Origin: a virus | Virus record (IMG/VR): IMGVR_UViG_3300022309_000001 | Location: 1 to 64,000 of that record | DNA: 64,000 bases | Reading direction: 5' to 3' (one strand) | Part shown: piece by piece, positions 6,371 to 62,469 of the stretch | How the letters are laid out: every line of letters begins with the position of its first letter | Position numbering within the stretch: the stretch's first letter is position 1 | Translations under genes and position numbers: made by a program | Notes under the pieces: model-generated | What the model saw: only the letters and a program-made list of their open reading frames with translations | Database searches by the model: none | Told to the model about the DNA's origin: nothing

Positions 6371-6658
6371 GTGTCTGACAGGACGAGCGCCGAGATCTTC
6401 GGGGACGTGTTCATGTACCTGGCGGAGCAGCCGAAGACGCCGGAGCGCGACGCCTTCGCCAGGAAGATGTGGGAGCGTACAGGCGAGTACGACTTCTCGG
6501 CACGTCAGATGGACGCAGACGACGGGCTGATCGCCCTGGGCCTGGCACGCAAGGTGCCCGACAAAGATGACCCGGGCTGGATGGAGGTGCTCTACGACGG
6601 CGACGAAGGCTTCGAGGAGGCGCTGGCTGCTGGAGCGCCATCGGAGGGCGAGCGGTGA
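6371..6658 (+). CDS. hypothetical acidic protein
   Basis: GTG start after GGAGGTGGCCC; 95 aa. Confidence 0.5.
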   Translation: MSDRTSAEIFGDVFMYLAEQPKTPERDAFARKMWERTGEYDFSARQMDADDGLIALGLARKVPDKDDPGWMEVLYDGDEGFEEALAAGAPSEGER

Positions 6659-7368
6659 AGCCCTACTACGAGGAGCCCGGGATCCAGCTCTACCAGGGCG
6701 ACAACCGCGAGGTGCTCGCGGCGCTCGGTATTCGCCCCGAGGACGTGGCGCTCCTTTGGGGGGACCCGCCGTATGGGATCGACCTCCAACCGCATGCGGT
6801 CTCACGCGGGGGCAAGAGCGGCAAGCGCTGCGCGTCGAACACGTGGGCGCCCATCACGGGCGACGCTGAACCGTTCGACCCGGAACCCTGGCTGCGCTTC
6901 CCTCGGCTAGTGCTATGGGGGGCGAACCACTACGCCGACAGGCTGCCGGCGTCCGCCGCGTGGTGGACTTGGGACAAGACGGGCGGCGGTAAGATGTTCG
7001 ATCAGAACTCGGACGCCGAGTTGGCTTGGGTGTGTCTCGGCGACACGGCGAGCGTGCGCGTCTTCCATCACCTTTGGAAGGGGCTTGCTACCGAATCTGA
7101 GAAGGGTCGCCTTGCGTCCGGCCGTGTGACGAACACCGCCCGCGTCCACCCCACCCAGAAGCCCGAGGCGCTGGCCTCGTGGGGTTTCCAGCGCGCGGGA
7201 CTGAAGGCCGGCGATCTTGTCCTATCGCCCTGGCTCGGCTCAGGCCCGGAGGCGGCGGCGGCCAAGCGGCTCGGGCTGCGGTTCGTGGGAATCGAACTGG
7301 TCCCCGAGTACCTCGACGCCTGCGTTGACCGGCTCCGGCAGGGCGTCCTGTTCGCGGAGGGGGCATGA
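6655..7368 (+). CDS. DNA methyltransferase (N6-adenine/N4-cytosine, DPPY type)
   Basis: LLWGDPPYGID (motif IV) near the N-terminus. HPTQKPEAL and LSPWLGSGPEAAAAKRLGLRFVGIEL (AdoMet motif I) near the C-terminus. This is the beta-class order. Confidence 0.85.
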   Translation: MKPYYEEPGIQLYQGDNREVLAALGIRPEDVALLWGDPPYGIDLQPHAVSRGGKSGKRCASNTWAPITGDAEPFDPEPWLRFPRLVLWGANHYADRLPASAAWWTWDKTGGGKMFDQNSDAELAWVCLGDTASVRVFHHLWKGLATESEKGRLASGRVTNTARVHPTQKPEALASWGFQRAGLKAGDLVLSPWLGSGPEAAAAKRLGLRFVGIELVPEYLDACVDRLRQGVLFAEGA

Positions 7369-21200: not shown

Positions 21201-21532
21201 CGGGTCGGCTCCCCATCGGCCGCAGGGTGGTTCGGACAGTCGCACGTCGCGCCCTTGCACTCGCAGCCGCTGTGGTTTCCGTCGCCCAGGTCGATGCCCT
21301 GGCAGCCCTCTGGGCAGCGATCCGGAGCCTTCGGGCCGCCGTGCATCTCGCAGGCAAGATCCGGGACGTAGCCGTTGAAGCGCCCGTCTTCCCGGTACAG
21401 TCTTCCGGTCCAACCGTCTCGGTACTGGCGGCACGGCGGGCGCTTGCCGTAAGCCGGCTTGCCGCACGCCCCAGCCGGCATACCGTCGCCCCACCACATC
21501 GGGACAGAGCACTTGCCAGGAACGTCAGCCAT
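21197..21532 (-). CDS. Cys-rich protein
   Basis: ATG 21532. 13 Cys, including GCECKGATCDCPNH. Confidence 0.5.
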   Translation of the reverse strand: MADVPGKCSVPMWWGDGMPAGACGKPAYGKRPPCRQYRDGWTGRLYREDGRFNGYVPDLACEMHGGPKAPDRCPEGCQGIDLGDGNHSGCECKGATCDCPNHPAADGEPTR

Positions 21533-21824
21533 GGCTCGGCTCCTCCCCATCGGCCGCGCGGAGGGCCTCGGAAGCCCGGGTGCAGATACCGCAACCGCAC
21601 TTGCCGAACTGAGCCGCGTGCTCGCTCAGGATGTAGACCAGCGCCTCGCGCATCACCGGAGCGGCAGACGCGAGCGCAACGAACCTGTCCCGCGCCCGCT
21701 TCACAGGCTCCGGCGCACCGTCGAACTTCGGGAACGTCCGGGCGACCTGCGCGACCATCAGCTTCAGCAGCGCGTCGTCATCGAATGCCGCAACCGCTTC
21801 ATCAAGCGTCCGTTCCATTGTCAC
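21525..21824 (-). CDS. hypothetical protein, CGCGIC C-terminal module (copy 1)
   Basis: 99 aa. C-terminal 37 aa MREALVYILSEHAAQFGKCGCGICTRASEALRAADGE are identical to the neighbouring gene. Confidence 0.5.
   Translation of the reverse strand: MTMERTLDEAVAAFDDDALLKLMVAQVARTFPKFDGAPEPVKRARDRFVALASAAPVMREALVYILSEHAAQFGKCGCGICTRASEALRAADGEEPSHG
21543..21654. repeat. 112-bp direct repeat, copy 1
   Basis: 111/112 identical to 21827-21938, at an offset of 284 bp. Confidence 0.9.
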
Positions 21825-22102
21825 ATCTCCCCATCAGCCGCGCGGAGGGCCTCGGAAGCCCGGGTGCAGATACCGCAACCGCACTTGCCGAACTGAGCCG
21901 CGTGCTCGCTCAGGATGTAGACCAGCGCCTCGCGCATCGGCCCAAAGGCGTTGACGGAGCGGGTGAGCAACGTGGTGTTTTGGCGTCGCCTCTGGCGGGG
22001 CGGGACCAGGAATCCGACTTGCCCGCCCCTTGCGTCCATGACGCAGCCGTCTTCATCCACCGTCCACGGCCTCGGCGACGCATCCTTGAACTCGTCCGCC
22101 AT
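21821..22102 (-). CDS. hypothetical protein, CGCGIC C-terminal module (copy 2)
   Basis: ATG 22102 after GGAGGGAGCG. Same C-terminal module as 21525..21824. Confidence 0.5.
   Translation of the reverse strand: MADEFKDASPRPWTVDEDGCVMDARGGQVGFLVPPRQRRRQNTTLLTRSVNAFGPMREALVYILSEHAAQFGKCGCGICTRASEALRAADGEM
21827..21938. repeat. 112-bp direct repeat, copy 2
   Basis: 111/112 identical to 21543-21654. Confidence 0.9.
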
Positions 22103-22159
22103 CGCTCCCTCCAACCTACGCACAACTCCATCCGGCTATACCATTGCGCCCCGCTGGCG

Positions 22160-22459
22160 TCAAGCCCCTTCATCCGGCACGTAGTCCGCGCAGGACGACG
22201 ACTCGTGCCAGTACGACTTGTCCTGCTTGTCGACCTCGCAGACGCCCCAGGCAGCGAACGCCTTACCGGGCTTCCAGCGCTGGCAGCCTCCGCACTTCAC
22301 GCCGCGCAGGCAGGCGGCGGAGCGCGCGGACTCCAGGCCGTCCAGGAGCGCCCGGAGAGAGGGCTCGTCGACGGTCCCGTGCGCGGACTCGAACGCCTGG
22401 CGCACCCGGCCAGTGAGCGCCTCGGTGTCTTGCAGCAGTGCGGCTAGGCTGTCCGACAC
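22160..22459 (-). CDS. hypothetical protein (MSDSL N-terminus, CGGC motif)
   Basis: 99 aa. N-terminus parallels that of 22468..22704. Confidence 0.5.
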   Translation of the reverse strand: MSDSLAALLQDTEALTGRVRQAFESAHGTVDEPSLRALLDGLESARSAACLRGVKCGGCQRWKPGKAFAAWGVCEVDKQDKSYWHESSSCADYVPDEGA

Positions 22460-22467: not shown

Positions 22468-22704
22468 TCAGCGCGCGAACGGCGCAATCAGCAGGTCATG
22501 CTGCTGGACGCCGCCGACCGTCCGCCCATGGATTGCCCTGGGACACATGAGCGCCTTGACCTTGAAGCCGGTCTTGCACAGGCCGTCGAAGACTGCCGCT
22601 AGGGCGGCCTCGTCCGGCTTGCCTTCGGCCCCTGCCCATGCCGCGTGGGCGCGTTCCTGGAGCGCCTCCATCTCGCGCATCAAGGTGTCGAGGGAGTCGC
22701 TCAT
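22468..22704 (-). CDS. hypothetical protein (MSDSL N-terminus)
   Basis: 78 aa; ATGA coupling to the upstream gene. Confidence 0.5.
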   Translation of the reverse strand: MSDSLDTLMREMEALQERAHAAWAGAEGKPDEAALAAVFDGLCKTGFKVKALMCPRAIHGRTVGGVQQHDLLIAPFAR

Positions 22705-23117
22705 GTTCCAGATCTCCGTTGCTGTGCGATGGCCTTGCAGAGCAAGCCTCTGGCCTCAGAGATGGCGTTCAGAGCTGCAAGCGTCTCGGCGTTCATGTCG
22801 CGGTCGTCGCCCCTGGCATTGGCGCAGCGGAAGTCTGAGAGTCGCGACTCAACCGCTTCAAGCTCTGCCTGAATGGCCTCGAGTTCAGGCGGGAGAGCGT
22901 CCTCTTCGCCGGATGGCTCGCACGTCCAGCCGGCGTCGCGCAGCACGGCGACGAGAATCTCGACGGGGATGGTCCCGCCGCACTCGTCTCCATCCTCGTT
23001 GCTCGCGACCACGGAAACCAGCTCGGCGTCGAGGAGCCCGATGCCAACGCCGTCTCGGCAGTACCAGCCCGGATCTTCCGGCTTGCAGTGGCGCTCCCAG
23101 CCATTCGGTAGAGCCAT
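22701..23117 (-). CDS. hypothetical protein
   Basis: Internal ATG 23117 of track ORF 22701..23249. Confidence 0.5.
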   Translation of the reverse strand: MALPNGWERHCKPEDPGWYCRDGVGIGLLDAELVSVVASNEDGDECGGTIPVEILVAVLRDAGWTCEPSGEEDALPPELEAIQAELEAVESRLSDFRCANARGDDRDMNAETLAALNAISEARGLLCKAIAQQRRSGT

Positions 23118-23334: not shown

Positions 23335-23414
23335 GTCTCCTCCTTCTCGGGCGGCTCACACGTCATCTCGGCCGCTGCCTTCGCCGCCTCCAGCAAGTCC
23401 GGCGGGGGCGTCAT
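23331..23414 (-). CDS. 27-aa coupling micro-ORF
   Basis: MTPPPDLLEAAKAAAEMTCEPPEKEET. Its ATG overlaps the upstream stop (ATGA) and its TGA overlaps the downstream GTG (GTGA). High GC3. Confidence 0.3.
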   Translation of the reverse strand: MTPPPDLLEAAKAAAEMTCEPPEKEET

Positions 23415-23671
23415 GGCGCGCGGCCCCCGAGATCTTCGATGGCTGCCCTGATGGACAAAAGCCACTCGCTCCGATTCGCGGCGGCTCGGTAGCCATGCCA
23501 GGCCAACTTCGCGCTCGCGATGCGGACTGGCTCAGACTGCATCCACCAGATGAGACTCGCGCCAGCCGGACGCAGCGGAGCAAGAAGCGGCCGGCCCCTC
23601 TGCTTGCGATTGCGGGCCAGTGCCCGGAGCCTCTCCAGGATGGCGATAGCGGCGGCAACATCGGGCGTCAT
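23411..23671 (-). CDS. small helical paralog-family protein (leftward copy 1)
   Basis: 86 aa. ILERLRALARNRKQRGRPLLAPLRPAGASLIWWMQ...WHGYRAAANRSEWLLSIRAAIEDL aligns with 27201..27467. Confidence 0.5.
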   Translation of the reverse strand: MTPDVAAAIAILERLRALARNRKQRGRPLLAPLRPAGASLIWWMQSEPVRIASAKLAWHGYRAAANRSEWLLSIRAAIEDLGGRAP

Positions 23672-23946
23672 CGGGGCACCTCGTCGAGAGATCGAATGGC
23701 GCGCAGCACGGACCGCATCACCACGCCGCGCCTGATGGGCCGGTCGGACATGGCCAGCCAGTACCCGGCGCACGTCAGCGCGGCATCAACCAGTCTGTCT
23801 GTCGCCTCGTCCAGGGCCAGAAGGCGCTTCACTGCATAGGTGTCCCAGGAGCCGATAACGGGGACGAACCATCGTATCGGCGCCTCGACGGACAGGAGCG
23901 CCCAGAGCAGCGCCAGCGCCCACTGGGCCTGCTCTTGCGTCGTCAT
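23668..23946 (-). CDS. small helical paralog-family protein (leftward copy 2)
   Basis: 92 aa. MTTQEQAQWALALL...AGYWLAMSDRPIRRGVVMRSVLRAIRSLDE. Confidence 0.5.
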   Translation of the reverse strand: MTTQEQAQWALALLWALLSVEAPIRWFVPVIGSWDTYAVKRLLALDEATDRLVDAALTCAGYWLAMSDRPIRRGVVMRSVLRAIRSLDEVPR

Positions 23947-24176
23947 CGGACCGCCTCGTCGAGCGTGTCGATGGCGCTGCGAATGCGCCGGAAGAGCAGT
24001 CGACGCGAGCCCCCGCACATCGGGACAGCCCTGATCGTCCGCACAAGCGCGTCGTAAGCCAGCGCCTGCGCCCGGTCGCGTGGTGCCGAAAAGACGAGCA
24101 GGCTGCCCACCCCATCCACCAGCAGGCACGCCCGGTACAGCGCGAGCACCCACTGCGCCTGTTCTCGCGTCGTCAT
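23943..24176 (-). CDS. small helical paralog-family protein (leftward copy 3)
   Basis: 77 aa. MTTREQAQWVLALY...YDALVRTIRAV...LLFRRIRSAIDTLDE. Confidence 0.5.
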   Translation of the reverse strand: MTTREQAQWVLALYRACLLVDGVGSLLVFSAPRDRAQALAYDALVRTIRAVPMCGGSRRLLFRRIRSAIDTLDEAVR

Positions 24177-24511
24177 CGGCTCGCCTTCCCTTCCTGCGCC
24201 TCGGGGGCCGGCTCCATCGTCACGCGCACGCGCCCAGCCTCGACGTCCTCGGGAGTCCCGCCAGCGGCCCGGACAAGGGCCGCGCACCGGACCGCGAACG
24301 CCTCCTCTGCCCAGTGCGCCTCGCGGCGTTTCGCGTCCGCCGCCCACTTGGCATCCCGGGCGGCTCGCCGCTTTTCCACGGCTGATGGCGCGTGCTGGTA
24401 GCACCATGGCTTGCCGTCTTCGACGACGGTCGGCTTGCGGGAGCAGTCCGTAATCCCCCATGCGTCCGAGCTGACGCGCTCCGAGCACGGGCCGTTGATC
24501 GTCTCACCCAT
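24173..24511 (-). CDS. hypothetical protein
   Basis: 112 aa; ATGA coupling downstream. Confidence 0.5.
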   Translation of the reverse strand: MGETINGPCSERVSSDAWGITDCSRKPTVVEDGKPWCYQHAPSAVEKRRAARDAKWAADAKRREAHWAEEAFAVRCAALVRAAGGTPEDVEAGRVRVTMEPAPEAQEGKASR

Positions 24512-25358
24512 GGTGCGGTTCCTCCGGGGCCGGCTCCACTCCGGCGGCGCGGATGGAGGCGAGAAGCTGCTTCGCGCTTGCGTGCGTCGTCTCGTAGGCG
24601 TCGCCGTCTACCAGGAAGTCACCGTTGGAGCGATACTTGCCCACACTGCGCAAGCCGGCCACGAGATCCAACACCGTCGCGCACCGTCCGAGGAGCGCGC
24701 GCATGCCGTTCTCGTGCTTGCTCGTGCGCTCGTACCAGTCGCGGATCGTCTCATCGCTCGGATCCTGCCGAAGCGAGAGAGGGAGATGCCGGCTGCCGAG
24801 TTCGGCGATCTTCGCGCGCAGGTCGTGAAGTTCCACGTCCCTCGGGTCCTCGGCTGCCGGCCGCGCCCTCCGGGCCTCCTCGTCGGTGATGGCGCGCTCG
24901 AGGGCCGCAAGGTCTCCAAGGATCTCCGCCGCGTCCTCCTCGTGGATGAGCAGTGCCGGCCAGTCCCACGAGGTGACGGAGCGCAACGCTGCGAGCACGT
25001 CCGGTCCCTCCCGGTCCGCGCTCGCTGGCGGGGAGTCGGTGGGCTTCGGCTGGAACTCGGCGCACGGGTCAGACGCAACAAGGCGCCAGGGGAATCGCAT
25101 TCCAGTCGCGGTGCATCGGAAGCCATCGCCCTCCACGATATCGAAGATGTGCGCGCACTCGCGGCAGTCCACGACCGGCAGTGAGGCGGAGGATGGCACG
25201 AAGTCTTCGCACGGGTCCGACGCCACGACGCTCCATGGCATCAGCGTGTCTGACTTGGCGCATCGGTACGAGTAGCCTTCCTTGACATCGAAGACGTGCG
25301 CGCACTTCCGGCAGTCCACCGCCACAACGGCTCCCTTCTCAATATCTTCGTTATTCAC
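24504..25358 (-). CDS. protein with two tandem Cys-modules
   Basis: GTG 25358 (GTGA coupling). VDCRKCAHVFDV.EG..YRC....MPWSVVASDPCEDF is repeated as VDCRECAHIFDIVEGDGFRC...FPWRLVASDPCAEF. Confidence 0.55.
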   Translation of the reverse strand: MNNEDIEKGAVVAVDCRKCAHVFDVKEGYSYRCAKSDTLMPWSVVASDPCEDFVPSSASLPVVDCRECAHIFDIVEGDGFRCTATGMRFPWRLVASDPCAEFQPKPTDSPPASADREGPDVLAALRSVTSWDWPALLIHEEDAAEILGDLAALERAITDEEARRARPAAEDPRDVELHDLRAKIAELGSRHLPLSLRQDPSDETIRDWYERTSKHENGMRALLGRCATVLDLVAGLRSVGKYRSNGDFLVDGDAYETTHASAKQLLASIRAAGVEPAPEEPHHG

Positions 25359-25558
25359 GGCGCCAAGCCTCCAGCTTTCGTCCAGCACCCTTCGCAGACG
25401 CGTTCCGGCCGACGCTTGCCCCTCTCAACCGCACCGGCCGCTGTCCAGAGTCCGCACAGGATGCACTTGCCCTCCCATGTGAAGGCCCGTCGCGCCCACT
25501 CCAGCCCGCTGACGTTGCCCTCGCGAACCGCCTCCTTGATCCGCTCGTACGCCGTCAC
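25355..25558 (-). CDS. small Cys-containing protein
   Basis: 67 aa; contains CILCG...CEGC. Confidence 0.5.
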   Translation of the reverse strand: MTAYERIKEAVREGNVSGLEWARRAFTWEGKCILCGLWTAAGAVERGKRRPERVCEGCWTKAGGLAP

Positions 25559-25773: not shown

Positions 25774-25907
25774 GGCTTCTCCTTCTTCCCGATGCTCGCC
25801 AGCCGAGGTCCCTGCCGCGTCTCCTGGCGGACCTTCCCGCGAGCCATCCAGCCGCAGGAGAAGCCCACCGCAAACAACCCGAACAGCGCCAGCGCCTCGC
25901 AGGCCAT
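25770..25907 (-). CDS. 45-aa single-TM peptide
   Basis: MACEALALFGLFAVGFSCGWMARGK... with TGATG and ATGA coupling. Confidence 0.35.
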   Translation of the reverse strand: MACEALALFGLFAVGFSCGWMARGKVRQETRQGPRLASIGKKEKP

Positions 25908-26227
25908 CACGTCTCCTCCAGTTGCAACTCGCCAGCCTCGTCGATCCTCAGCCTGGTCGCGCCGGGCCAGGTGCTCAACCACTGGACGACGAAGCGCCGG
26001 GCTTCCTCCAGCGAAGTGGTGGCGCTCTTGGCCAGCGCATTGTCTAGGGTGTACGCGCACGACAGGTCGACGGCATCCATGGCGTACCACGGACCCTCAA
26101 TCGCGTCCCTGATGCTGTCGGCTTCCGGTCCTTGATCAAGCCCATCCCGTTCCAGCCGATCCAGCCGAATCGACAGGCGGATGTAGTCCACAAAGGCAGC
26201 CCGCGATTCGCCGCTTGCTCTGTCCAC
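25907..26227 (-). CDS. first gene of the leftward early operon, hypothetical
   Basis: GTG 26227 (or 26230) after AAGGAGGGA. The upstream part of the track ORF would overlap the promoter. Confidence 0.5.
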   Translation of the reverse strand: MDRASGESRAAFVDYIRLSIRLDRLERDGLDQGPEADSIRDAIEGPWYAMDAVDLSCAYTLDNALAKSATTSLEEARRFVVQWLSTWPGATRLRIDEAGELQLEET

Positions 26228-26273
26228 CACTCCCTCCTTGCGCCGCCCACTCGGCGCTCGTCCAGCATCGCGC

Positions 26274-26302
26274 ACACTACGCGCACTCAGCGGGCTTGTC
26301 AA
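26274..26302 (-). promoter_or_regulatory. leftward promoter TTGACA-N17-TAGTGT
   Basis: Minus-strand hexamers with a 17-nt spacer. Its -35 box overlaps the -35 box of the rightward promoter within CTTGTCAAG. Confidence 0.5.
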
Positions 26303-26324
26303 GCGCCTTCTCGTGTGCTAGGGT
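26296..26324 (+). promoter_or_regulatory. rightward promoter TTGTCA-N17-TAGGGT
   Basis: Plus-strand hexamers with a 17-nt spacer, about 30 nt upstream of AAGGAGGAG and ATG 26356. Confidence 0.5.
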
Positions 26325-26355
26325 GCCGGCTGCCGTTGTGAAGGAGGAGCCATTG

Positions 26356-26715
26356 ATGGGTACGAGGTTCGGCGCGGAGTTGCGCGAGCGTCGTCAGTCC
26401 GCCGGCCTGACGATGAGGGAGTTGGCGAAGGGGCTAGAAGTCTCGCTGTCCTACGTCTCCGACGTGGAGCGCGGGAGCAGACGGCCATGGAGCGAGGACA
26501 AGGTACGTGCTGCGGCTGCCCTCGTCCGGGCGGATCCGGACGAGTTCGCTGCCCTTGCTGCGGAGGGGCGCGGCGGCTTCGTCCTGCGTGCTGTCGGGGT
26601 GTCGGACCAGCACGTGCGCGTCGGGGCGGAGTTGCAGCGGGCCTGGGAGCGCCTGGGCGAGGATGGGCTGTCCGCCATCGGACGGGCGCTGGTGCGGTAC
26701 GGAGGTGGGCGATGA
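26356..26715 (+). CDS. XRE-family helix-turn-helix regulator (Cro/CI-like)
   Basis: GAELRERRQSAGLTMRELAKGLEVSLSYVSDVERGSRRP is a canonical HTH_3 motif. ATG 26356 follows AAGGAGGAG. Confidence 0.8.
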   Translation: MGTRFGAELRERRQSAGLTMRELAKGLEVSLSYVSDVERGSRRPWSEDKVRAAAALVRADPDEFAALAAEGRGGFVLRAVGVSDQHVRVGAELQRAWERLGEDGLSAIGRALVRYGGGR

Positions 26716-26981
26716 GCGGCACGGAGTCTGGCGTCCTGACTCCCGAGTTGCGCGCCTGGACGCGGCGCTTCTGCCGGCACCTGTGCGACGAGATCAACGC
26801 CATGGCCGAACGCGAGCAGCGAGGCCCTGGAGACGTACTGGAGTCGCTGACGTTTGTGGCTACTGCGATCATCAAGGCCAAAGCGAAGACCGCGCAGGCC
26901 ATGGCGGCCAAGGCGAACCAGGCGTTCCAGCGGCGCAACGTGGCATCCGGGCAGCGGCGCTCCGGTCGGAGCAAGAAGTGA
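26712..26981 (+). CDS. hypothetical protein
   Basis: ATGA-coupled internal start of track ORF 26487..26981; 89 aa. Confidence 0.5.
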   Translation: MSGTESGVLTPELRAWTRRFCRHLCDEINAMAEREQRGPGDVLESLTFVATAIIKAKAKTAQAMAAKANQAFQRRNVASGQRRSGRSKK

Positions 26982-27232
26982 CCGGCGTCCCTCGCCAAGA
27001 GGCTGTCGATCTGCTGCGTCGCCTGCGCGCTGACGCTGTGCGGTTCGACATCCGGCCTAGCCTGGCCGGCATCGGGATGGTGCGGCTTGAGGTGTTCCGG
27101 GCCGTGCGCGAAGCGCTGGAGCGGCACGGCTACTACGAGCTGCCGGTGCCAACGCGGGAGAAGTGGCTGGCTGCAATCGACGGGGCGATTGCTGAAATGG
27201 ATGGTGGAGATGACGGACGAGACGAGAAGTGA
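26978..27232 (+). CDS. small helical paralog-family protein (rightward copy 1)
   Basis: GTGA coupling. EAVDLLRRLRADAVR...ALERHGYYELPVPTREKWLAAIDGAIAEMD. Confidence 0.5.
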   Translation: MTGVPRQEAVDLLRRLRADAVRFDIRPSLAGIGMVRLEVFRAVREALERHGYYELPVPTREKWLAAIDGAIAEMDGGDDGRDEK

Positions 27233-27467
27233 AGCCATCCGGGTGCTGAAGCGCATGCGCTGCCTGGCTAAGATCCGGGTGCAAAGGCCATCCCTTCGGC
27301 TCATGCGCCCGGCAGACGTTGGACTGCTGAAGTGGATGCAGACCGACGTGGCGCGCGCCGTCGCGGATGCGCTCTCCGGTACGCGCTACTACCGGGAGAC
27401 CTTGCGGACCGGGTGGCTCGCGTCGCTAGATAAGGCCATCGCGTCCCTGGAGGCCAGCGATGCCTGA
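27201..27467 (+). CDS. small helical paralog-family protein (rightward copy 2)
   Basis: EAIRVLKRMRCLAKIRVQRPSLRLMRPADVGLLKWMQ...ALSGTRYYRETLRTGWLASLDKAIASLE. Start is 27201 or 27210. Confidence 0.5.
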   Translation: MVEMTDETRSEAIRVLKRMRCLAKIRVQRPSLRLMRPADVGLLKWMQTDVARAVADALSGTRYYRETLRTGWLASLDKAIASLEASDA

Positions 27468-27723
27468 CATGTGCCACATCATCCGGGACAACGCGTTCCG
27501 TCGCCTGGCTGCCGTGCGGATGCTCCAGGCGCTGCGCGAGGAAGTGGCCGCCTGTCCAGATGTCGCCGGCCCCGTTCCTTCGCCCGGCCGCAACATCCTG
27601 GATGCCGAGAACGCCTTGATGTGGGCCGGCTGGTACGCGCTCGATGAGTCGTCCACTCGCGAGGAGCGGCTTCGCGTAGTGGAGGCCGCCATCGCTAGCC
27701 TGGAGCGGCGGGACGCGCCATGA
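27460..27723 (+). CDS. small helical paralog-family protein (rightward copy 3)
   Basis: NAFRRLAAVRMLQALR...ALMWAGWYALDESSTREERLRVVEAAIASLE. Confidence 0.5.
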   Translation: MPDMCHIIRDNAFRRLAAVRMLQALREEVAACPDVAGPVPSPGRNILDAENALMWAGWYALDESSTREERLRVVEAAIASLERRDAP

Positions 27724-27914
27724 CTCCGGGAGCGCGTCGGGATGCACGCGAGGCCAGGCGCCAGCTTCTCGGGGCTTCGCGACGCCTGGAGATGCTGGCC
27801 GCGATGCTGAGGGCCTCCGGGCATGTGCGCTGTGAGGAGGTGGAGAAGGACTGCGGCGCGGTACGCAAGGCCACCAAACGGTTGACGTTGATGCTGGAGG
27901 AGCGGACGAGATGA
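27720..27914 (+). CDS. small basic helical protein
   Basis: 64 aa; ATGA coupling on both sides. Confidence 0.45.
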   Translation: MTPGARRDAREARRQLLGASRRLEMLAAMLRASGHVRCEEVEKDCGAVRKATKRLTLMLEERTR

Positions 27915-28444
27915 GCGACAAGACGCAGACTGGGGACGGGTGTCCAATCTCGCCCGCCAAGTTGTTGTTGGTATGTCTCAGGGGCGCGGTTCGGAGGCGT
28001 GCTCTGCCAAAGCTGGCGGACTTCACCGAGACGAGAGGCGAGGCGTTCGAGACGGCCTACAGCGCGCTGGAGGAAACCGGCTACTACTCTTCGGCCCCCA
28101 CCACCCCCAGGCGCCGCAGGAAGTGCATCGACGCTGCGCTAGCCGCCATCTCGGGCGAGAAGCAGCCCAAGGCGCGGGGGGGCGAAGTCGTGACGCGCAC
28201 CACGTACATTCAGGCCAGCGCGCTTCTGCATCGTTTGCGGCGCATCGTTGCAAAGGACGCCGACGCGGCGCTTGTGTCTGCGTGGAAGCGTGAAAGGTGC
28301 GTCGCATTCGCTGCCGCGCACGATGCTCTGATGCAGACCAGATTCTACAACCTGACGCGCTCGCGCCCGGCGATGGTTCGCGCGGTAGGCCACGCACTGC
28401 AACTGCTTGCCCGCGCCGCACTGAAGGCGAGGGCGACGCTATGA
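27911..28444 (+). CDS. fused double copy of the helical paralog family
   Basis: Two modules in one ORF: ...YSALEETGYYSSAPTTPRRRRKCIDAALAAIS and ...ALLHRLRRIVAKD...HDALMQTRFYNLTRSRPAMVRAVGHALQLL. Confidence 0.55.
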   Translation: MSDKTQTGDGCPISPAKLLLVCLRGAVRRRALPKLADFTETRGEAFETAYSALEETGYYSSAPTTPRRRRKCIDAALAAISGEKQPKARGGEVVTRTTYIQASALLHRLRRIVAKDADAALVSAWKRERCVAFAAAHDALMQTRFYNLTRSRPAMVRAVGHALQLLARAALKARATL

Positions 28445-28641
28445 CGCGTGCCGAGCTAGTCATCCGGAGCGCGCTCGTGGGTGTGCATCGAACGCAGAGG
28501 CGGCTGGAGGCAGCGCGCACTGCACTGGCGACGTTGGATTCAGATGACCGCGAACGCCTCGAACTGGAGGCCGCGCTCTATGGCGCTGGGCTCGTGGAGA
28601 AGAAGCTGCTGGCGCTCTTGGGCGCCAAGGGGAAGCCATGA
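28441..28641 (+). CDS. small helical protein
   Basis: ATGA-coupled internal start of the track ORF; 66 aa. Confidence 0.45.
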   Translation: MTRAELVIRSALVGVHRTQRRLEAARTALATLDSDDRERLELEAALYGAGLVEKKLLALLGAKGKP

Positions 28642-30317
28642 CGGAGACGACGGTGTTGACGGCGGAGAGGCCGTCCGACGATCAGTTTGACCGCGACTTC
28701 ACGGCCGGCTGTCGAGCCCCGGACTGGGGTGAGCGGAGTTGTACGGCCGCCATCGAGGAGCTTCACGCCGAAGCCACGCGCGCCCGCGCTGGAGAGGCCA
28801 CCCTCCTCGCCGCACTCGAAGCGGCGCAGGAAGCGCTGGTGAAGGCGGAGTGGGAGCGCGACGAAACGTTTACCGCGCTCACGACCGCCGAGGGCGCGCT
28901 TGATGTTGCTGGTGGTCGCGCAGACCGCGCGAACGCGGAGCGCGACGAGGCCCTCGCCCGGCGCAAGGACGCCCTCGACTCGCTGTCCGCGATGACGCTC
29001 AAGCGGGACGCCCTCGTGGCCGAGAGGGATGCCATGGTGCTGGAGTCCGCGAACCTCGCGGCGCGGGTGGCGGAGCTGGAGGGGGCGCTTGCGGCGGCGA
29101 CAGAGCGGAACAAGGCATGGCGCGAGCGGGCATGGACCGTAATTGCCGCGCACGACCGCTTCATGGAGTCGGCTCACTACAGCGTCACCTATCGCGACTC
29201 GGATTCCGAGGCGCTCGATGTCGCCAGGCTGACTCAAATCGGCAAGCTGCGCGCCCTCGCCGCCGCCCTTCCCGAGCAGGCGCCCGGCATGGAGACTTGC
29301 GCCCGGGACGTGTGGCGGTGCTCGGGATGCGGCGAGATGCTCGACAACCCGCCGGGGACGGCCTGGCGCTGGAACGGGAAGGCGTGGGAGCACCGCTGCC
29401 CCGAGCGAGACCCGCAGGCCGGCTACGAGCCCGCCAAGAACTTCGGGCCGCGCGTGGCGCCCGGGCAGGCGCCCCGGACGGACGACGCGAAGGTGCGCGA
29501 GAGGCTCGCGCGCCTGGAATGGGCATTTCCAGCGCTGGACGGTCGCGGCTCATGCTTCTACTGCCTGCGAGTCCGCGAGGAGGGCCACGTCGGCGGATGC
29601 CCGGTCGCCGAGGTGTTGGCGCAAAGCCCGCCCCGGACGGCTGACGAAGCGCGCCCGGCCCTCCCCTGGCCCGCAACGGCGAACGCGATGCACGCCTGTG
29701 CAGACGCATTTCCTGACGTAGAGGTTGGGCACATCTACAACGTGTGCGAGCACCCGACAACGGCGGAGCACCGCACTCGAGATCTTGCGCTAGTAACCTG
29801 CCTTGATTGCCTGCGTGAGATCGCCTGGCAGCGGGGCGAGCACCTTGGGTCCGCGCGCCCGGCCGACGTGGGCGCGGCGCCCCCCGCCTCCACCGGGGTG
29901 GCGGAGTTCGACGCACAGATGCGGCGCGAGCTGGGGCTGGAGGCGCCCCCCGCCTCCACCGGGACGGACATTGGTAAATGCGCGACCTGTGTTCGCGCGC
30001 GGGACGACAGTTGCGCTCGCATGCACAAGACAGAAATCGGACCTCTGGTGTGCCCAGACTACCAGGGCAATTCCGAAGCCCCCACCGGGACGGCGCCCGA
30101 CCTCTCCCGGTTCGGCGACATGGCAGCGGAGGAGGCGCGGAAGCTGGGGGTGGCCGGGGACCCGCTCTGTGCGCGGGACCTCGGGGGCGTGCTCCCATGC
30201 GCGCATCGCAAATCGGAACACAGGCCGCAGTGCTGCGGCAACCAGCCGGGCGAAACAATCTGCCCTTGCCACCTCTTCGTCTCGCCGGGCGCCGGAGAGA
30301 GCGAGGGGGCGCCATGA
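28638..30317 (+). CDS. large coiled-coil protein with Cys/Trp-rich modules
   Basis: 559 aa. N-terminal half is Ala/Glu/Arg coiled coil. Then WRCSGCGEML...WRWNGKAWEHRCPE, CFYCL, CLDCL and CATCV motifs. Confidence 0.6.
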   Translation: MTETTVLTAERPSDDQFDRDFTAGCRAPDWGERSCTAAIEELHAEATRARAGEATLLAALEAAQEALVKAEWERDETFTALTTAEGALDVAGGRADRANAERDEALARRKDALDSLSAMTLKRDALVAERDAMVLESANLAARVAELEGALAAATERNKAWRERAWTVIAAHDRFMESAHYSVTYRDSDSEALDVARLTQIGKLRALAAALPEQAPGMETCARDVWRCSGCGEMLDNPPGTAWRWNGKAWEHRCPERDPQAGYEPAKNFGPRVAPGQAPRTDDAKVRERLARLEWAFPALDGRGSCFYCLRVREEGHVGGCPVAEVLAQSPPRTADEARPALPWPATANAMHACADAFPDVEVGHIYNVCEHPTTAEHRTRDLALVTCLDCLREIAWQRGEHLGSARPADVGAAPPASTGVAEFDAQMRRELGLEAPPASTGTDIGKCATCVRARDDSCARMHKTEIGPLVCPDYQGNSEAPTGTAPDLSRFGDMAAEEARKLGVAGDPLCARDLGGVLPCAHRKSEHRPQCCGNQPGETICPCHLFVSPGAGESEGAP

Positions 30318-33311: not shown

Positions 33312-33531
33312 GCAGCGCAAGACGAGCATCGGGACTTGCATCATCGAAGGACTCGGGCGACCAGAGTACGCCGGCCTTCCGACGCTGAACCTCGAGTGCC
33401 CGGAGTGCGGTTCGAGGTGGGTTGCTAAGCCCCGGCCGGATGGGCTCGGCTACGACTTGCAGATCTGCCCGAACGCGCAGTGCCAGAAGGCGCAGCGGGA
33501 CAGGGCAGCGGCGGAGGTGCCGACGCCATGA
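33304..33531 (+). CDS. zinc-ribbon protein
   Basis: CPECGSRW...CPNAQC; 75 aa. Confidence 0.5.
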   Translation: MTEQRKTSIGTCIIEGLGRPEYAGLPTLNLECPECGSRWVAKPRPDGLGYDLQICPNAQCQKAQRDRAAAEVPTP

Positions 33532-34361
33532 ACAAGCCAAAGGAACGTCCGATCCTTTTCTCGACGGAGATGATGCGCCGGCTGTTGGCCGGCGAGAAGA
33601 CACAGACCCGGAGGCTCATCGAGTGGCAGCCGCTCGAGGAGGGCTTGAGCCTCAGCTTCAGCGGGCTGTCGGTCGGCGAGTACTGCACCGGAGACCGGCG
33701 GAGCGGCTACGTCCTGCGCTCGCAGAGCGGCGGCTGCTGGCAGGACCGCACGATGCCGCTGAAGTGCAAGCTGGGATACGCGGGGGACTTGCTCTGGACG
33801 CGCGAGGCGTGGGCGCAGCTTCGGGGGTGCGCACCGAGTGACCGGGCTCGCACAATCAGCCGCCACAACAGGTCCTGTGATGTCATCTGGCGTGCGGATG
33901 GTCCATTTGTGTGGGGCCAAACTGACGCGAGGCTGTGGCTGCCGGGCGACCCTTCTCCAGACTCCGAAATCCCATGGCGCCCATCCATCCACATGCCGCG
34001 CTGGGCCTCCCGCTGCACACTGGAACTGACGCGCGACCGGCTGCCCGAGCGTCTCCGGAGCATCACCGAGGAGGACGCAATGGCTGAGGGCTTCCGGCCT
34101 GTGGTGCATGAGAGCTGGTCGGCGTTCGATCCACACACCGAGGCTTATCCGGAGTTCATGTCCGAGCCGACAGCCGAGGATATCGCCCGCTTCGGCTACC
34201 AGAACGTCCGTCACCACGGGCCGAAGGTCATCGCCACCGCGCGCGACGCCTTCAGGACGTACTGGGACGGCCAGTACGGCAAGCGAGACGGTGGGCGCTG
34301 CTCCTGGGATGCGAATCCATGGGTGCAGCCGTACGAGTTCAAGGTGGTGAATCGTGGCTAG
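33528..34361 (+). CDS. phage protein with ASCH/PUA-like N-terminal motif (copy 1)
   Basis: PILFSTEMMRRLLAGEKTQTRR and HMPRWASRCTLELT...ITEEDAMAEGF. Paralogous to 36216..36917. Fold assignment is tentative. Confidence 0.45.
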   Translation: MNKPKERPILFSTEMMRRLLAGEKTQTRRLIEWQPLEEGLSLSFSGLSVGEYCTGDRRSGYVLRSQSGGCWQDRTMPLKCKLGYAGDLLWTREAWAQLRGCAPSDRARTISRHNRSCDVIWRADGPFVWGQTDARLWLPGDPSPDSEIPWRPSIHMPRWASRCTLELTRDRLPERLRSITEEDAMAEGFRPVVHESWSAFDPHTEAYPEFMSEPTAEDIARFGYQNVRHHGPKVIATARDAFRTYWDGQYGKRDGGRCSWDANPWVQPYEFKVVNRG

Positions 34362-35312: not shown

Positions 35313-36223
35313 AGGATCCGCTGGTGAAGCTGCGGTTGACGGATGCGCGCAAGTGCCGCGCAAGCATGCCGGGATGGGGCAACCTCGCGCACGGCCGGGC
35401 GCTCGATGCCGCGATCTCCGCCGCCGAGAAGCTCTCCGACAGGAAGAAGGCGCGGCCCCTGAAGCAGAAGCACGAGAAGCCATCGAAGCTCGACCGGCTC
35501 CAGAAGGGCCACAAGAGGCGCAGCGCCAAGGCGCAGCGAACGACGCTCGTCTACGATGCCGTCAAGAAGCGAGCCGGCGGTTTCTGTGAGTTCTGCGGTA
35601 TAGCGTTCGACCAGACGCTGAGCGGCGCGCCGGAGATGGATCACTTCTGGGGCAGGGGCGAGACGGGCGACAAGGCTGAGAGCATCGAGACGTGCTGGAT
35701 GCTGCATGCTGGCTGCCACAAGCTGAAGACGGACAACGTCCCGTCGCGGGTCGTGTGGCTGGAGCGCTTCCGCTTCTACGCGAGCACCCTCCACTATGCC
35801 ACGCAGAGAGACTTGGCGCTCCGGGAGATCGAATCCGAGGAACTCGTCGTGCGGGCCGCTGCCGTCACGCGGCTTGGGAAGGACTTGTTGGTGGACGCCG
35901 TTGGTGACAAGTTGTCGGTGAAGTACATTCGGGCGGTCGCTGGCGTCTCGTACAGCAACATCATCTGGCAACCCGCCTGGCCGATGCGGAACGGGACGTT
36001 CCCGTCTGGGCACCCATGCTTTGGAAACCCGAGGCCACTGACTTTCGGAGTCGAGCCAGAAACCACAGACCCGCTTGGACGCTTTCGGGGCCGGGGCTAC
36101 TTCGCGAGTTGCTTTCCTGAAGGAGACGGGATCAGCTTCGCTCCGTTGAATGACGAGCGCCCGGACGAGGTTGTCATGCGCGACATCGCCGAGTGCTTCG
36201 GCTTTGAGGTGCGCCGTGGATAG
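35309..36223 (+). CDS. HNH/NinG-like nuclease-motif protein
   Basis: CEFCG...MDHFWGRG...CHKLKTD in the central region; basic N-terminus. Confidence 0.5.
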   Translation: MKDPLVKLRLTDARKCRASMPGWGNLAHGRALDAAISAAEKLSDRKKARPLKQKHEKPSKLDRLQKGHKRRSAKAQRTTLVYDAVKKRAGGFCEFCGIAFDQTLSGAPEMDHFWGRGETGDKAESIETCWMLHAGCHKLKTDNVPSRVVWLERFRFYASTLHYATQRDLALREIESEELVVRAAAVTRLGKDLLVDAVGDKLSVKYIRAVAGVSYSNIIWQPAWPMRNGTFPSGHPCFGNPRPLTFGVEPETTDPLGRFRGRGYFASCFPEGDGISFAPLNDERPDEVVMRDIAECFGFEVRRG

Positions 36224-36917
36224 GCCCCTCATCTGCCCCGACTGGGAAGTCCAGGGCCTGCTGGCCGGGCGCATTAAGCTGCTTTGGCGTCCAGTCCAGC
36301 ACTGCAAGGAGTTCCCCGACTCAAACCAGTGGCCGGTATGGTATCCGGCCAAGGATGGGGCGCCGGTCTTCCTGGACCGTGACGGCAAGGGCGCGGACAA
36401 GCTGGCGCTCCGGTACGCGCACGGGAAGCGCTCGCCCTTCGGTGTCGCTGGGGACACGGCCTGGATCCGGGAGACGTGGCGTGTTTGCGCCATAGAGCGC
36501 ACGCGATGCGCCGATGGGGAACGGTATATGGCCGGTGTCCAGTTCAAGTCCGGTGGTGCGATGTTCGTCACCATCTCGCCCGACCAGAAAGCGCAGTCGG
36601 TGGTTGTGCGGCCGGGACGTGACAAGTGGCGCTCGTCCAGCCATATGCCCCGCTGGGCATCCCGCCTCTCGGTGCTCGTCGAAAGCGTCCGGCCGCTGCG
36701 TGTCCAGAGCGCCACAGAAGAAGACGCGCGCCTGTCCGGACTGGACCAGTACACACTCCGGGCCGCCGACGAGAGCCCGGACGCAGACATCCCGAGACGA
36801 GGGCTGGCGAAGTTGTGGGACGCCAGGATCGCGCGCCGTCCAGAGCACGCCTGGGAGCGCAACCCGTGGGCATGGTGCGCGAACGTGAAGGTGCAGGAGG
36901 TGAGCTGTGGCAAGTGA
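36216..36917 (+). CDS. phage protein with ASCH/PUA-like motif (copy 2)
   Basis: LICPDWEVQGLLAGRIKLLWRP and HMPRWASRLSVLVE...ATEEDARLSGL parallel 33528..34361. Confidence 0.45.
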   Translation: MDRPLICPDWEVQGLLAGRIKLLWRPVQHCKEFPDSNQWPVWYPAKDGAPVFLDRDGKGADKLALRYAHGKRSPFGVAGDTAWIRETWRVCAIERTRCADGERYMAGVQFKSGGAMFVTISPDQKAQSVVVRPGRDKWRSSSHMPRWASRLSVLVESVRPLRVQSATEEDARLSGLDQYTLRAADESPDADIPRRGLAKLWDARIARRPEHAWERNPWAWCANVKVQEVSCGK

Positions 36918-41859: not shown

Positions 41860-42200
41860 GCGAGCGCAAGCGGATCGTAATTCTGGAGTCGCCATACGCT
41901 GGAGACATCGAGCGTAATCTGGCGTACGCGAGAGCCGCGTTGCGCGACTGCGTACTTCGGGGCGAGGTGCCGCTAGCGTCGCACCTGCTCTACACGCAGC
42001 CGGGGGTGCTCCGGGACGAGGTGCCGGAAGAGCGGGCGCTCGGGATCTCCCTCGGGCTGGAACTCCGCCGTGTTGCCGAGGCGACGGTCGTCTACACAGA
42101 CCGAGGAATCTCCGAAGGGATGCGGCTTGGAATAGCAGACGCGGAAGCGCACGGGCGGCCTGTCGAGTTTCGGCGCCTGGATTCGTGGGTATTCGGATGA
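41856..42200 (+). CDS. nucleoside 2-deoxyribosyltransferase-like (DUF4406-like) protein
   Basis: KRIVILESPYAGDIERNLAYARAALRDCVLRGEVPLASHLLYTQ is recalled as this fold. Tentative. Confidence 0.35.
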   Translation: MSERKRIVILESPYAGDIERNLAYARAALRDCVLRGEVPLASHLLYTQPGVLRDEVPEERALGISLGLELRRVAEATVVYTDRGISEGMRLGIADAEAHGRPVEFRRLDSWVFG

Positions 42201-43009
42201 CTACCGCCATCGACGATGTTCTGTCCGGCCGCTCCCAGTGGTGCGTCTTGCACGGCAAGTGCGAAGACATCCTGCCGACCATGGCCAAGCGCTCAGTCAC
42301 GCACGTCATCGCGGATCCACCCTACAGCGAGCACGTCCACAGCAAGCAGCGTCGAGTCTTGAAGGGCTCCGGCGGAAGGGTGGCGAAGGGGCAGCGGTCT
42401 GGACGCGGGAAGGTCGTCGAGGCGGACCTCGGCTTCGTGGCCTTGACGCCGGAGCTGCGGAGGCTGTGCGGAGTGCACTTCTCGCGCATCGCCCAGCGGT
42501 GGATCCTCGCATTCACCGACCTCGAAGGGCAGGCCGCGTGGCAGTCGGATCTCGAGCGCGCTGGCGCTCGGCACGTCAGGATCGGCATCTCGCGCAAGCT
42601 GGCCGGCCAGCCCCAACTGTCAGGAGATCGGCCAGCAGTCGGGTGTGAAGGCGTCGAGGTGGCGCACGTCAGGGGCGAGCGGCTCCGCTGGAACGGCGGC
42701 GGGCTTCCGGCCTTCTGGGAGCACGCCATTGCCACCGACCGGAACGGCAACAGCCGCGTCCACACGACACAGAAGCCGATCTCGCTGATGCTGGAGATGG
42801 TCGAGCAATTCACGGATCCGGGCGACGTGGTGCTGGATGCCTTCACGGGATCGGGCACCACTGGCGCGGCTTGCGTGCAGCTCGGCCGGCGCTTCATCGG
42901 AATCGAGATGGACGAGACGTACGCGCAGCTAGCCCGCGACCGGATCCGAGGCTGGGGACCGGCGCTGGATGGGCGAGGCGGACAGCTTGCGCTCCTGGAG
43001 GGGGCCTAG
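42197..43009 (+). CDS. DNA methyltransferase (N6-adenine/N4-cytosine, DPPY type), second copy
   Basis: HVIADPPYSEH, HTTQKPISL and VLDAFTGSGTTGAACVQLGRRFIGIEM; ATGA coupling. Confidence 0.85.
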   Translation: MTTAIDDVLSGRSQWCVLHGKCEDILPTMAKRSVTHVIADPPYSEHVHSKQRRVLKGSGGRVAKGQRSGRGKVVEADLGFVALTPELRRLCGVHFSRIAQRWILAFTDLEGQAAWQSDLERAGARHVRIGISRKLAGQPQLSGDRPAVGCEGVEVAHVRGERLRWNGGGLPAFWEHAIATDRNGNSRVHTTQKPISLMLEMVEQFTDPGDVVLDAFTGSGTTGAACVQLGRRFIGIEMDETYAQLARDRIRGWGPALDGRGGQLALLEGA

Positions 43010-47296: not shown

Positions 47297-47848
47297 ATGA
47301 AGAAGATTCCGAGCGTTTGGAAGCGCGACTTCTCAAAGAAGGGCGCGCCGTACCTGGACGAGGTGGCGCCAGGCTGTGAGTGGGTACTGGCCGGCGAGGG
47401 TGTGGTGACCAGGAAGTGGGACGGAGCAGCGTGCCGCATCGACGATGATGGCATGCTGTGGGCCAGGTACGACGCGAAGCACGGCAAGCAGCCGCCCCAG
47501 GACTTCGAGCCGTGTGGACAGCCAGATTCTGAGACCGGCCACTGGCCTGGGTGGGTGCCAGCCATCAGGCCGCAGGACCAGTGGATCCGGGAGGCGGTGA
47601 AGCCGCTGAGCCCGAAGCGCCCTGGCACCTACGAGGCTGTGGGACCGAAGATCAACGGCAACCCAGAGCGGCTCGAGCAGCATGTCGCCATCCGCCACTC
47701 CGAGTCGGCGCAGTACGCCGACGCACCGCGTACGTTCGACGGGCTGAGGGCATGGCTGGAGCCGCTGGACATCGAGGGCGTGGTCTTCCACCACCCGGAC
47801 GGCAGGATGGCCAAGGCGACCAAGCAGGGCTTCGGGCTCAAGCGATGA
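47297..47848 (+). CDS. ATP-dependent RNA/DNA ligase-like nucleotidyltransferase
   Basis: 183 aa. VVTRKWDGAACRI carries the KxDG adenylylation motif I. Size and layout resemble small phage RNA-ligase-like proteins. Confidence 0.5.
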   Translation: MKKIPSVWKRDFSKKGAPYLDEVAPGCEWVLAGEGVVTRKWDGAACRIDDDGMLWARYDAKHGKQPPQDFEPCGQPDSETGHWPGWVPAIRPQDQWIREAVKPLSPKRPGTYEAVGPKINGNPERLEQHVAIRHSESAQYADAPRTFDGLRAWLEPLDIEGVVFHHPDGRMAKATKQGFGLKR

Positions 47849-49819: not shown

Positions 49820-50035
49820 CTACGCCCACCGCAGATCGTATCCCGGAGCGGAGTACAGCCGCGCGATGGACTGGACAGCGGCCGAACGGTGGCGGAACGT
49901 CAGGCCGAGCTGGCGCACGGAGCCGTTCGGGAGCATCACACACAGCGCGACGCCATCCTCGAGGTACAGCTCGGCGCGCGAATCGCTATCGAGCTTGATG
50001 GTGGCGATGGTGGCGGTCTGGTCGGTGGTGGTCAT
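49820..50035 (-). CDS. hypothetical protein
   Basis: Internal ATG 50035 of track ORF 49820..50119; 71 aa. Confidence 0.45.
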   Translation of the reverse strand: MTTTDQTATIATIKLDSDSRAELYLEDGVALCVMLPNGSVRQLGLTFRHRSAAVQSIARLYSAPGYDLRWA

Positions 50036-50373
50036 CGTGGGCTCCAGGGTCCGGCGGCTTCGTCGCCGCCATGCCCACCAACAATGCAGCACGCATGCCA
50101 CGCCCAAGCGCTGGCGCAAACGCGCGTAACCACAAGGGACGCCAGAAAGGCCGAACGCACCGTTTGCGCGTCTTTCGGCCGGATGGCCAGCCTGGCGGCT
50201 AAGTGCGCGTAACTACTAGCTGCATAGATTGCGCTCCAGAAGGCCGCTCGCGCAAGTTGCGCGCTAGGCTCTTGGCGCTGCTCTAGTGGTTTCGCGTGGT
50301 TGCGATTGGCACCTAGACTGCAAAGGCTAGCTGCGTGGCTGCCAGGCTGTGGCCCGCTGGAAGGAACTCGACC

Positions 50374-50574
50374 ATGATCACCGACTTCGCGACCCTGTTG
50401 GAGCAGCCCAGCATCACCGCAGCGACCGTCACCTACGGCCAGCTCATCCAGCTCCGGGAGCAGGCGCAGGACGCCGGGGACGAAGACATGGTGGCCGAGT
50501 GCGGCCTGGCGCTGTCGGGCGACACGGCGGCGCTGGAGCGGTGCGCGCAGTTCATTGCGGACATGGAGGAGTAG
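50374..50574 (+). CDS. small acidic protein
   Basis: ATG 50374 after GGAAGGAAC; 66 aa. Confidence 0.5.
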   Translation: MITDFATLLEQPSITAATVTYGQLIQLREQAQDAGDEDMVAECGLALSGDTAALERCAQFIADMEE

Positions 50575-53361: not shown

Positions 53362-53549
53362 TGCCGGATCAGGTGCTCGCTCGGGTCTCCTGGCTGGCCG
53401 GAGATCGACGCCTTGGCGAAGCGACGAGGCGCGCTCTCCGGACTGAAGTTGATCGGATGGTGGACGCGCAGCGGGTGAGCCGCGCGGCCTACCGGGTAGC
53501 CGCGAGCCGGGCCGCTGTCGCCGCGCGTGAGATGGGGGTGTCGCTGTGA
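53358..53549 (+). CDS. hypothetical protein
   Basis: ATGA coupling; 63 aa. Confidence 0.4.
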   Translation: MMPDQVLARVSWLAGDRRLGEATRRALRTEVDRMVDAQRVSRAAYRVAASRAAVAAREMGVSL

Positions 53550-62342: not shown

Positions 62343-62469
62343 CTTGGAGGCTCCTGCCTACGGTGGTGCGCCGGTGTCCGGTGACGGCTTGGTGCGACCT
62401 CCGGTAGACGGCAGCGACCGTCGAATTAGCGGTGGGCAGGAGCCTCCAGTAGTACAAGCAGAGGCGAAT

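Follow-up and report, generated by a model that had tools for sequence, protein, structure and literature searches.

A lineage-specific family of small phage proteins encoded on both sides of a divergent junction

Introduction

Why would a phage carry, on both sides of one divergent gene junction, a series of short genes whose products resemble one another, and what might such proteins do at that site? The question is raised by the first 64,000 nucleotides (nt) of the IMG/VR virus record IMGVR_UViG_3300022309_000001 (hereafter the window), and specifically by three minus-strand genes at 23411-24176, which an earlier note had assigned to the same family as a plus-strand array lying across a divergent intergenic region, the "switch", at 26228-26355. 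The window is part of an uncultured, high-GC, myovirus-like phage (guanine plus cytosine content of 67%), and its phage-type genes code for baseplate J, a cement-like protein, ParB, an SMC-like ATPase, an RNA ligase, and HNH and DUF5131 proteins. The window encodes nine domains of the family in eight genes, seven of a subtype A and two of a divergent subtype B, and the family is previously undescribed and lineage-specific, with proteins of about 75-100 residues. That this picture of the family and of its evolution is correct is close to certain; for the whole explanation, in which the family picture is combined with the role of small binder proteins proposed below, a compromise figure of about 0.5 is adopted.

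Nine domains and two subtypes

The seven subtype-A domains are those of 23411-23671, 26978-27232, 27201-27467, 27460-27723, both halves of 27911-28444, and 55734-55982. The minus-strand member, 23411-23671 (86 residues), aligns with 27201-27467 on the plus strand, as had been claimed, at 37.8% identity over 82 residues (blastp, 45.4 bits), and the Smith-Waterman score of the pair (z = 18.4) is reached by none of 500 composition-preserving shuffles, so that the similarity is not compositional. The same gene reaches a shuffle z of 7.6 against 26978-27232 and falls within the subgroup of 27201, P0006, and P0010, which is marked by an RPxL...LRP...WMQ insertion; being itself a row of the A-family profiles, it was not credited with its profile scores as evidence of membership. 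On the plus strand, 26978-27232 (84 residues, acidic; orthologues P0011 and P0007, 54% identity) reaches z = 17.6 against 27201-27467 and z = 14.4 against the N domain of 27911-28444. The next gene, 27201-27467, has orthologues at 52% (P0006), 59% (P0010), and 96% identity (P0001) and is 88 residues long as given, or 85 if it starts at 27210 (MTDETR), a start that appears the more likely because it is the one found by an independent caller and in the orthologue P0001.

The remaining plus-strand members are reached through profiles. A hidden Markov model (HMM) seeded with the five obvious copies and run against the six-frame translation of the window adds two domains, 27460-27723 at E = 1e-5 and the C half of 27911-28444 at E = 1.3e-3, with nothing else scoring. 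The former gene (87 residues, with a GWY variant of the motif described below and an orthologue, P0009, at 66% identity) is recovered at that value by a five-seed model from which it is absent. The latter (177 residues) contains two HMM domains, at about 27911-28174 and 28175-28444, and is a fusion, because each half matches separate proteins of other phages: the N half resembles P0008 (72%) and the C half P0016 (53%) and P0013 (49%), all three of which are single-domain proteins of 71-82 residues. Lastly, the plus-strand gene 55734-55982 (82 residues, listed as P0004 in the public protein set), which lies about 27.5 kilobases (kb) beyond the end of the array at 28444, is confirmed as a dispersed subtype-A member by its shuffle scores (z = 10.4 against 27201 and 7.8 against 26978) and by a five-sequence subtype-B profile that matches it at 92% (hhalign) and contains neither 55734 itself nor any subtype-A sequence.

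Where the earlier note had counted about ten domains, the family itself holds and the count comes down to nine, in eight genes. Every called gene of the window of up to 200 residues was compared with both the A and the B profiles, and no extra members were found. Two candidates were rejected: 27720-27914, whose group reaches 5.5% against subtype A (hhalign), and 28441-28641, which stays below 1% against either profile.

The two subtype-B domains are the other genes of the minus-strand trio, 23668-23946 (92 residues, translationally coupled on both sides) and 23943-24176 (77 residues). The codon-usage model and the independent caller, whose gene calls come from the 98.9 kb metagenome contig ENA ERZ27296412, of which the window is part, agree on all three genes as originally delimited, and neighbouring genes of the trio overlap by an ATGA stop/start. 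Subtype B has its own N-terminal motif, MTxREQAQWVLAL. Specifically, 23668-23946 has the N-terminus MTTQEQAQWALAL and the C-terminus ALTCAGYW...LRAIRSLDE, and in 23943-24176, the aromatic GYY loop has been lost or has degenerated and the C-terminus is IRSAIDTLDEAVR. The two are mutual paralogues (32.7 bits, shuffle z = 11.7).

Their relation to subtype A is less direct. With the window sequences alone, the B genes compared with the plus-strand copies give z of at most 3.0, hmmsearch E values of 0.12 to 1.2, and hhalign probabilities of 3-4%. This absence of direct pairwise or HMM significance inside the window favours the alternative that 23668-23946 and 23943-24176 share no ancestry with the others and that their C-terminal likeness is convergent, the product of an amphipathic Ala/Arg/Leu helix and of an embedded ribosome-binding site. 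In its favour, too, the last codons, L-D/E-E/A (CTCGACGAGG, CTGGAGGCC), hold GAGG or GGAGG 6-7 nt ahead of the overlapping ATG of the next gene (GAGG at 7 nt for the L-D-E codons), and C-terminal codons double as the downstream ribosome-binding site at 23943-23960, 23668-23690, and 27440-27462 (L-D-E-A/V, L-E-A-S); the likeness of the C-terminal motifs is therefore partly constrained at the nucleotide level. The similarities in the GYY loop, helix 3, and helix 1 are independent of this constraint. Moreover, two external proteins, L011 7158-7415 and L012 2303-2539, which are the best external matches of 23943-24176 (43% and 49% identity, respectively), join the B N-terminus (MTxREQAQWVLAL) to the full A-type C half (AL..AGFY...AIRRAIRSLDE) and score with both profiles (A, 1.4e-6 and 1.8e-8; B, 5e-13 and 8e-12). 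The A profile (26 sequences) and the B profile (five sequences) align at 95.1% (hhalign, E = 3.2e-8) over 72 columns that include helix 1, with a score of 44.7; the reversed B alignment gives 0.1%, and 100 column shuffles of B give a best score of 17.2 and a mean of 8.7, so that the controls are near noise. With the recovery of 55734 by the B profile by itself, these results leave convergence very improbable. Because the external B homologues link the two profiles, the trio falls in one superfamily, and homology of all nine window domains is shown at the level of sequence profiles. The assignment of all three minus-strand genes to one family thus stands directly for 23411 and, for 23668 and 23943, only through external intermediates and as a divergent subtype.

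The weakest alternative, that the similarity is compositional or that the open reading frames are chance open frames in 67% GC DNA and not genes, can point to the frequency of spurious frames at high GC and to the weak codon score of 23411-23671 (9.7 in the codon-usage model), but is to be regarded as already refuted by composition-preserving shuffles that never attain the observed scores, by orthologues in more than 10 independent metagenome contigs, by a ratio of nonsynonymous to synonymous substitution rates (dN/dS) of 0.23, and by identical independent gene calls.

Layout and evolution of the array

The switch, delimited by the gene calls of both the codon-usage model and the independent caller, separates a leftward operon, which extends from about 26.2 kb to 8.5 kb and whose first gene is 25907-26227, from a rightward operon that opens with an XRE-type helix-turn-helix (HTH) protein at 26356-26715 (matches to HTH_31/HTH_3 and to repressor PHROGs). 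The assembly around the switch is sound, because a 6.5 kb contig from an unrelated sequencing run, SRR7133727, is identical to the window over 6,496 nt across the region studied. A repeat scan of the junction for operators was uninformative. No near-identical DNA relative of the window is present among 50,697 deposited phages.

The family does lie on both sides of the junction at about 26.3 kb, as the minus-strand trio and the plus-strand array, and the arrangement is not peculiar to the window. Members are found in both operons of locus L008 (two rightward, one leftward), of L011 (one rightward, of subtype A, and one leftward, of subtype B), and of a 56 kb contig whose two ends are L003 and L012 (one member in the rightward-equivalent operon and three in the leftward-equivalent one). 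They stand within the first few genes past the divergent junction in the window, L008, L009, L011, L012, L013, and L014, and are mostly arranged in tandem, with two tandem members in each of L009 and L013 and three in L014. As the both-sides arrangement recurs in L008, L011, and the 56 kb contig, the presence of members in both divergent operons is, on the evidence of these loci, a conserved and ancestral feature of the phage clade, in which only the copy number changes.

Variation in copy number, for which the earlier note had proposed to compare related phages, is seen at two syntenic slots. In the first, bounded by the orthologues of 24504-25388 and 22701-23117, the window has 23943, 23668, 23411, and a gene of 71 residues, and L011 has a single subtype-B gene; in the second, bounded by the orthologues of 26712-26981 and 28638-30317, the window has five domains, and L011 has a single subtype-A gene and a 27720-like gene. 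The family hence documents a tandem array that expands and contracts (1 vs 3 and 1 vs 5 at syntenic slots) and that swaps alleles between related phages. The duplications themselves are old and predate the split of the sampled phages, because the external orthologues of the rightward paralogues are 52-72% identical to them, far closer than the paralogues within the window are to one another (at most 45%). The same figures qualify the statement that the family "has also spread elsewhere": the distant copy 55734 is a member, and the recent movement that the wording implies is not borne out. Compared with the close relative L004, 26978 and 27201 each have a dN/dS of 0.23, which indicates purifying selection.

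Exchange within the array has occurred between phages. A patch at 27481-27630, within 27460-27723, is 53-77% identical to L004 at the nucleotide level, with no insertions or deletions and with sharp bounds, and its flanks are 90-100% identical; its synonymous rate (dS) is 1.06, against 0.1-0.2 in the flanks and neighbouring genes, and its dN/dS is 0.29. Since dS is also high, diversifying selection is ruled out, and the patch is explained as an imported divergent allele, that is, as recombination between phages within the array. Conversely, recent gene conversion between paralogues, which the earlier note had proposed to look for along with recombination, finds no support, there being no long shared nucleotide tracts. 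Two apparent tracts were discarded: a 25-nt match of 96% between 26978 and 55734 spans the conserved W-x-A-A-I-D codons, and a 32-nt match of 100% between 26978 and 27201 is the physical overlap of both genes.

The dispersed copy 55734-55982 belongs to a plus-strand block of genes apart from the array; a second divergent junction, at 50035-50374, lies about 5.4 kb upstream of it. Downstream of that junction are also a gene at 52837-53361, for a protein with an anti-sigma-type zf-HC2 zinc finger, and a paralogue of the HTH protein of the switch at 53546-53848 (37% identity); the two lie about 2-3 kb upstream of the dispersed copy.

Predicted fold, conserved motifs, and surface charge

An AlphaFold2 model of 26978-27232 on a 26-sequence alignment (predicted local distance difference test, pLDDT, of 83.5; predicted template modelling score, pTM, of 0.73) places helices at residues 6-22, 29-32, 37-49, and 60-76, and the predicted fold can be described with confidence as a helical bundle in which a short helix accompanies three long ones. 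Helix 1 bears A..LL.RLR, helix 2 ends with AL...GYY and is followed by a loop, and helix 3 bears W..AID.AIA.L; in the model, the GYY motif lies in the loop ahead of the last helix. The model of 23668-23946 (pLDDT of 82.5) has the helix order of subtype A. Invariant or near-invariant columns are mostly hydrophobic and about 3-4 residues apart (e.g., A9, L12/L13, and L16 of helix 1), which is consistent with one conserved face per helix.

The net charge of the members ranges from -6 to +14 and is kept within orthologue groups. Many members are strongly basic, with net charges of +8 to +14 and isoelectric points (pI) of 10-12, and other groups are acidic or neutral (-1 to -2 for 26978/P0007/P0011, -3 to 0 for 27460/P0009, and -6 for P0028).

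Occurrence in databases

The family is rare. A profile search of 1.84 billion representative proteins returned 27 hits, namely five proteins of the window, three spurious repeat proteins, and about 19 external relatives. The long profile hits P0015 and P0018 were discarded as spurious, both being repeat or low-complexity proteins. The external relatives are unannotated, about 80 residues long, and all metagenomic, as all relatives are, and they have the motifs A..LL.RLR, AL...GYY, and W..AIDRAIA.LEA in common. None of the 28 members has a Pfam hit; the best PHROG match is at E = 0.011, and any one PHROG is common to at most two of the 28; PADLOC, which covers defence and not anti-defence families, gives no family match. 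Neither a sequence-profile search of the PDB nor a Foldseek search with the models returns anything significant (best E = 1.9 in the PDB and 0.9 in BFVD), solved anti-CRISPR (Acr) structures included. The work thereby defines a protein family absent from Pfam, PHROGs, and the PDB.

With 26978-27232 as the query, tblastn over 50,697 phage records has no match below E = 4. GTDB genomes, IMG/VR, and JGI metagenomes were also scanned by motif, which yielded no confirmed family loci, no prophage copy, and no host assignment, and likewise no confirmed loci for relatives of the neighbouring 294-residue protein or of the baseplate protein; word-index protein searches returned near-identical sequences only. 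Nothing relevant to the family was found in the literature.

Proposed function and its rivals

New inhibitors of bacterial defence, transcription, and replication come mainly from small early phage proteins, most of which are orphans seen once. Early accessory gene arrays are known in phages, including anti-CRISPR and anti-defence clusters by an HTH regulator (Aca) and the SPO1 host-takeover module. The present array is like them in that its proteins are 60-100 residues long and have no enzymatic motifs, its genes are packed and coupled beside an HTH regulator gene at the start of an early operon, gene content and copy number vary among close relatives, and recombination occurs within the array. 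Such arrays usually encode unrelated proteins; in contrast, a single fold is here present in nine copies, in old lineages under purifying selection, on both sides of the switch.

We tentatively propose that the members are early, non-enzymatic binder proteins with diversified surfaces, each lineage having its own partner in host take-over or counter-defence, a proposal whose chances we put somewhat below even. The divergent promoters would drive their synthesis as infection begins, and the proteins would act stoichiometrically, as small binders and not as enzymes; no enzyme family is matched in the Pfam, PHROGs, PADLOC, and PDB searches. The hydrophobic core would be conserved while the surfaces diversified into lineages of very different charge, and each lineage may engage a distinct host or phage partner. 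The members may also work as dimers, as is proposed because two lineages are fused in one polypeptide at 27911-28444. A fuller version, on which we would not lean, pictures an evolvable helical scaffold, duplicated and re-surfaced as a panel of early inhibitors, in which every lineage would counter its own host factor or defence system, members would form homo- or heterodimers, and copies under both promoters would ensure expression in whichever state of the switch; this is doubtful as a whole.

Several points weigh against the proposed explanation. The C-terminal likeness in L-D/E-E/A, partly fixed by the nucleotide sequence, is to that extent confounded as a sign of kinship. The fold agreement between the subtypes is partly circular and supportive only, as the model of 23668-23946 used a mixed alignment dominated by subtype A. 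We infer early expression only from the position beside the HTH regulator gene, and a scan of the junction detected no sigma-70 consensus promoter. The proposed dimeric state has a single fusion, 27911-28444, behind it. Finally, the pI above 10 of many members would also fit nucleic-acid binding.

This last point leads to the main rival, according to which the members are small nucleic-acid-binding regulators, either transcription or replication accessory proteins or nucleoid-associated ones, that act near the switch on DNA or RNA of the phage or the host, with paralogues recognising different sites. The location beside a divergent control region and an XRE-type HTH gene, the strongly basic members, and the invariant Arg of helix 1 (RLR) all speak for it. 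It has to contend with entire orthologue groups that are acidic or neutral, such as those of 26978 and 27460 and P0028, and with a Foldseek search that returns no HTH, ribbon-helix-helix, or other DNA-binding fold. Furthermore, no Pfam DNA-binding family recurs among the 28 members, and the test for HTH membership in Pfam and PHROGs gives one isolated HTH_36 match (E = 0.17) in one of them. Nucleic-acid binding is an unlikely role for the family, albeit the rival to be taken most seriously.

A minor and improbable rival would make the members accessory subunits or chaperones of the adjacent Cys-rich protein, of the family of 24504-25388, instead of independent effectors. An orthologue of 24504-25388 is adjacent to a member, or one or two genes from it, in every longer locus (the window, L006, L008, L011, and L012), and in L012 the Cys-rich gene has a family member on each side; as all of those loci are syntenic relatives, they do not count as independent cases of adjacency. 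In addition, most members, namely those of the rightward array and 55734, are not near the Cys-rich gene, and nine copies for a single partner are hard to explain. The 24504-25388 gene itself (minus strand) codes for 294 residues with a Cys-rich unit of about 45 residues duplicated internally (CRKCAHVFD...RC...DPCEDF and CRECAHIFD...RC...DPCAEF) and has no Pfam match.

Two known kinds of protein bear comparison with the family. T4 AsiA is one of the small, all-helical phage inhibitors of host RNA polymerase or sigma factors, and the family is like it in its size of about 80-90 residues, its predicted all-helical structure, its presumed early expression, and its likely dimeric state; it differs in that no PDB entry is matched in sequence or fold. 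The second comparison, with PG_binding_1 (PF01471), a three-helix peptidoglycan-binding domain, came from a weak match of the family profile to P0026, a protein with five PG_binding_1 repeats. In both, a helix ends with (A/L)L...GYY and a further helix comes after a loop, a resemblance at the level of the motif. The lead was rejected: hhalign gives 16% over 21 columns, in which only the L...GYY helix end aligns, the members are without a signal peptide and outside any lysis-gene context, and no peptidoglycan-binding domain is among the Foldseek PDB hits.

The family is new, but it is well known that small early phage proteins expand in particular lineages. What it adds is a single fold, kept by one genome in as many as nine copies at its most regulated site, and hence a comparative series for target finding.

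Other features of the window and of related contigs

The leftward operon contains two further pairs of adjacent paralogues on the minus strand. The genes at 21525-21818 and 21821-22114 are a recent tandem duplication of a small gene unrelated to the family (72% identity over 58 residues), with the common C-terminus MREALVYILSEHAAQFGKCGCGICTRASEALRAADGE, and those at 22160-22459 and 22468-22704 are 35% identical over 68 residues, both begin with MSDSL, and have orthologues in L011. Two other paralogous pairs are more widely spaced, namely 33528-34361 and 36216-36917 (37% identity over 110 residues), and 6655-7368 and 42197-43009 (41% over 76 residues), the latter joining a gene of the structural block to one of the rightward operon. 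The RNA ligase is encoded at 47297-47848 (PHROG 14301, E = 6.5e-62), and its nearest deposited relatives, at about 49% identity, are those of Mycobacterium phages. A single tRNA-Pro (TGG) lies at 62269-62343, near the end of the window.

The 56 kb contig mentioned above is the Logan contig SRR14640487_4528 (56,472 nt). Its ends (L003 1-285 and L012 1-31) share 7 nt and join in frame, and across the joined ends, an open reading frame begins at an ATGA-coupled ATG (MKTRAVNLRREEYDVYIGRAGHGQDGYFGNP...). Because the ends overlap and join in this way, the contig appears to be a circular or complete phage genome.

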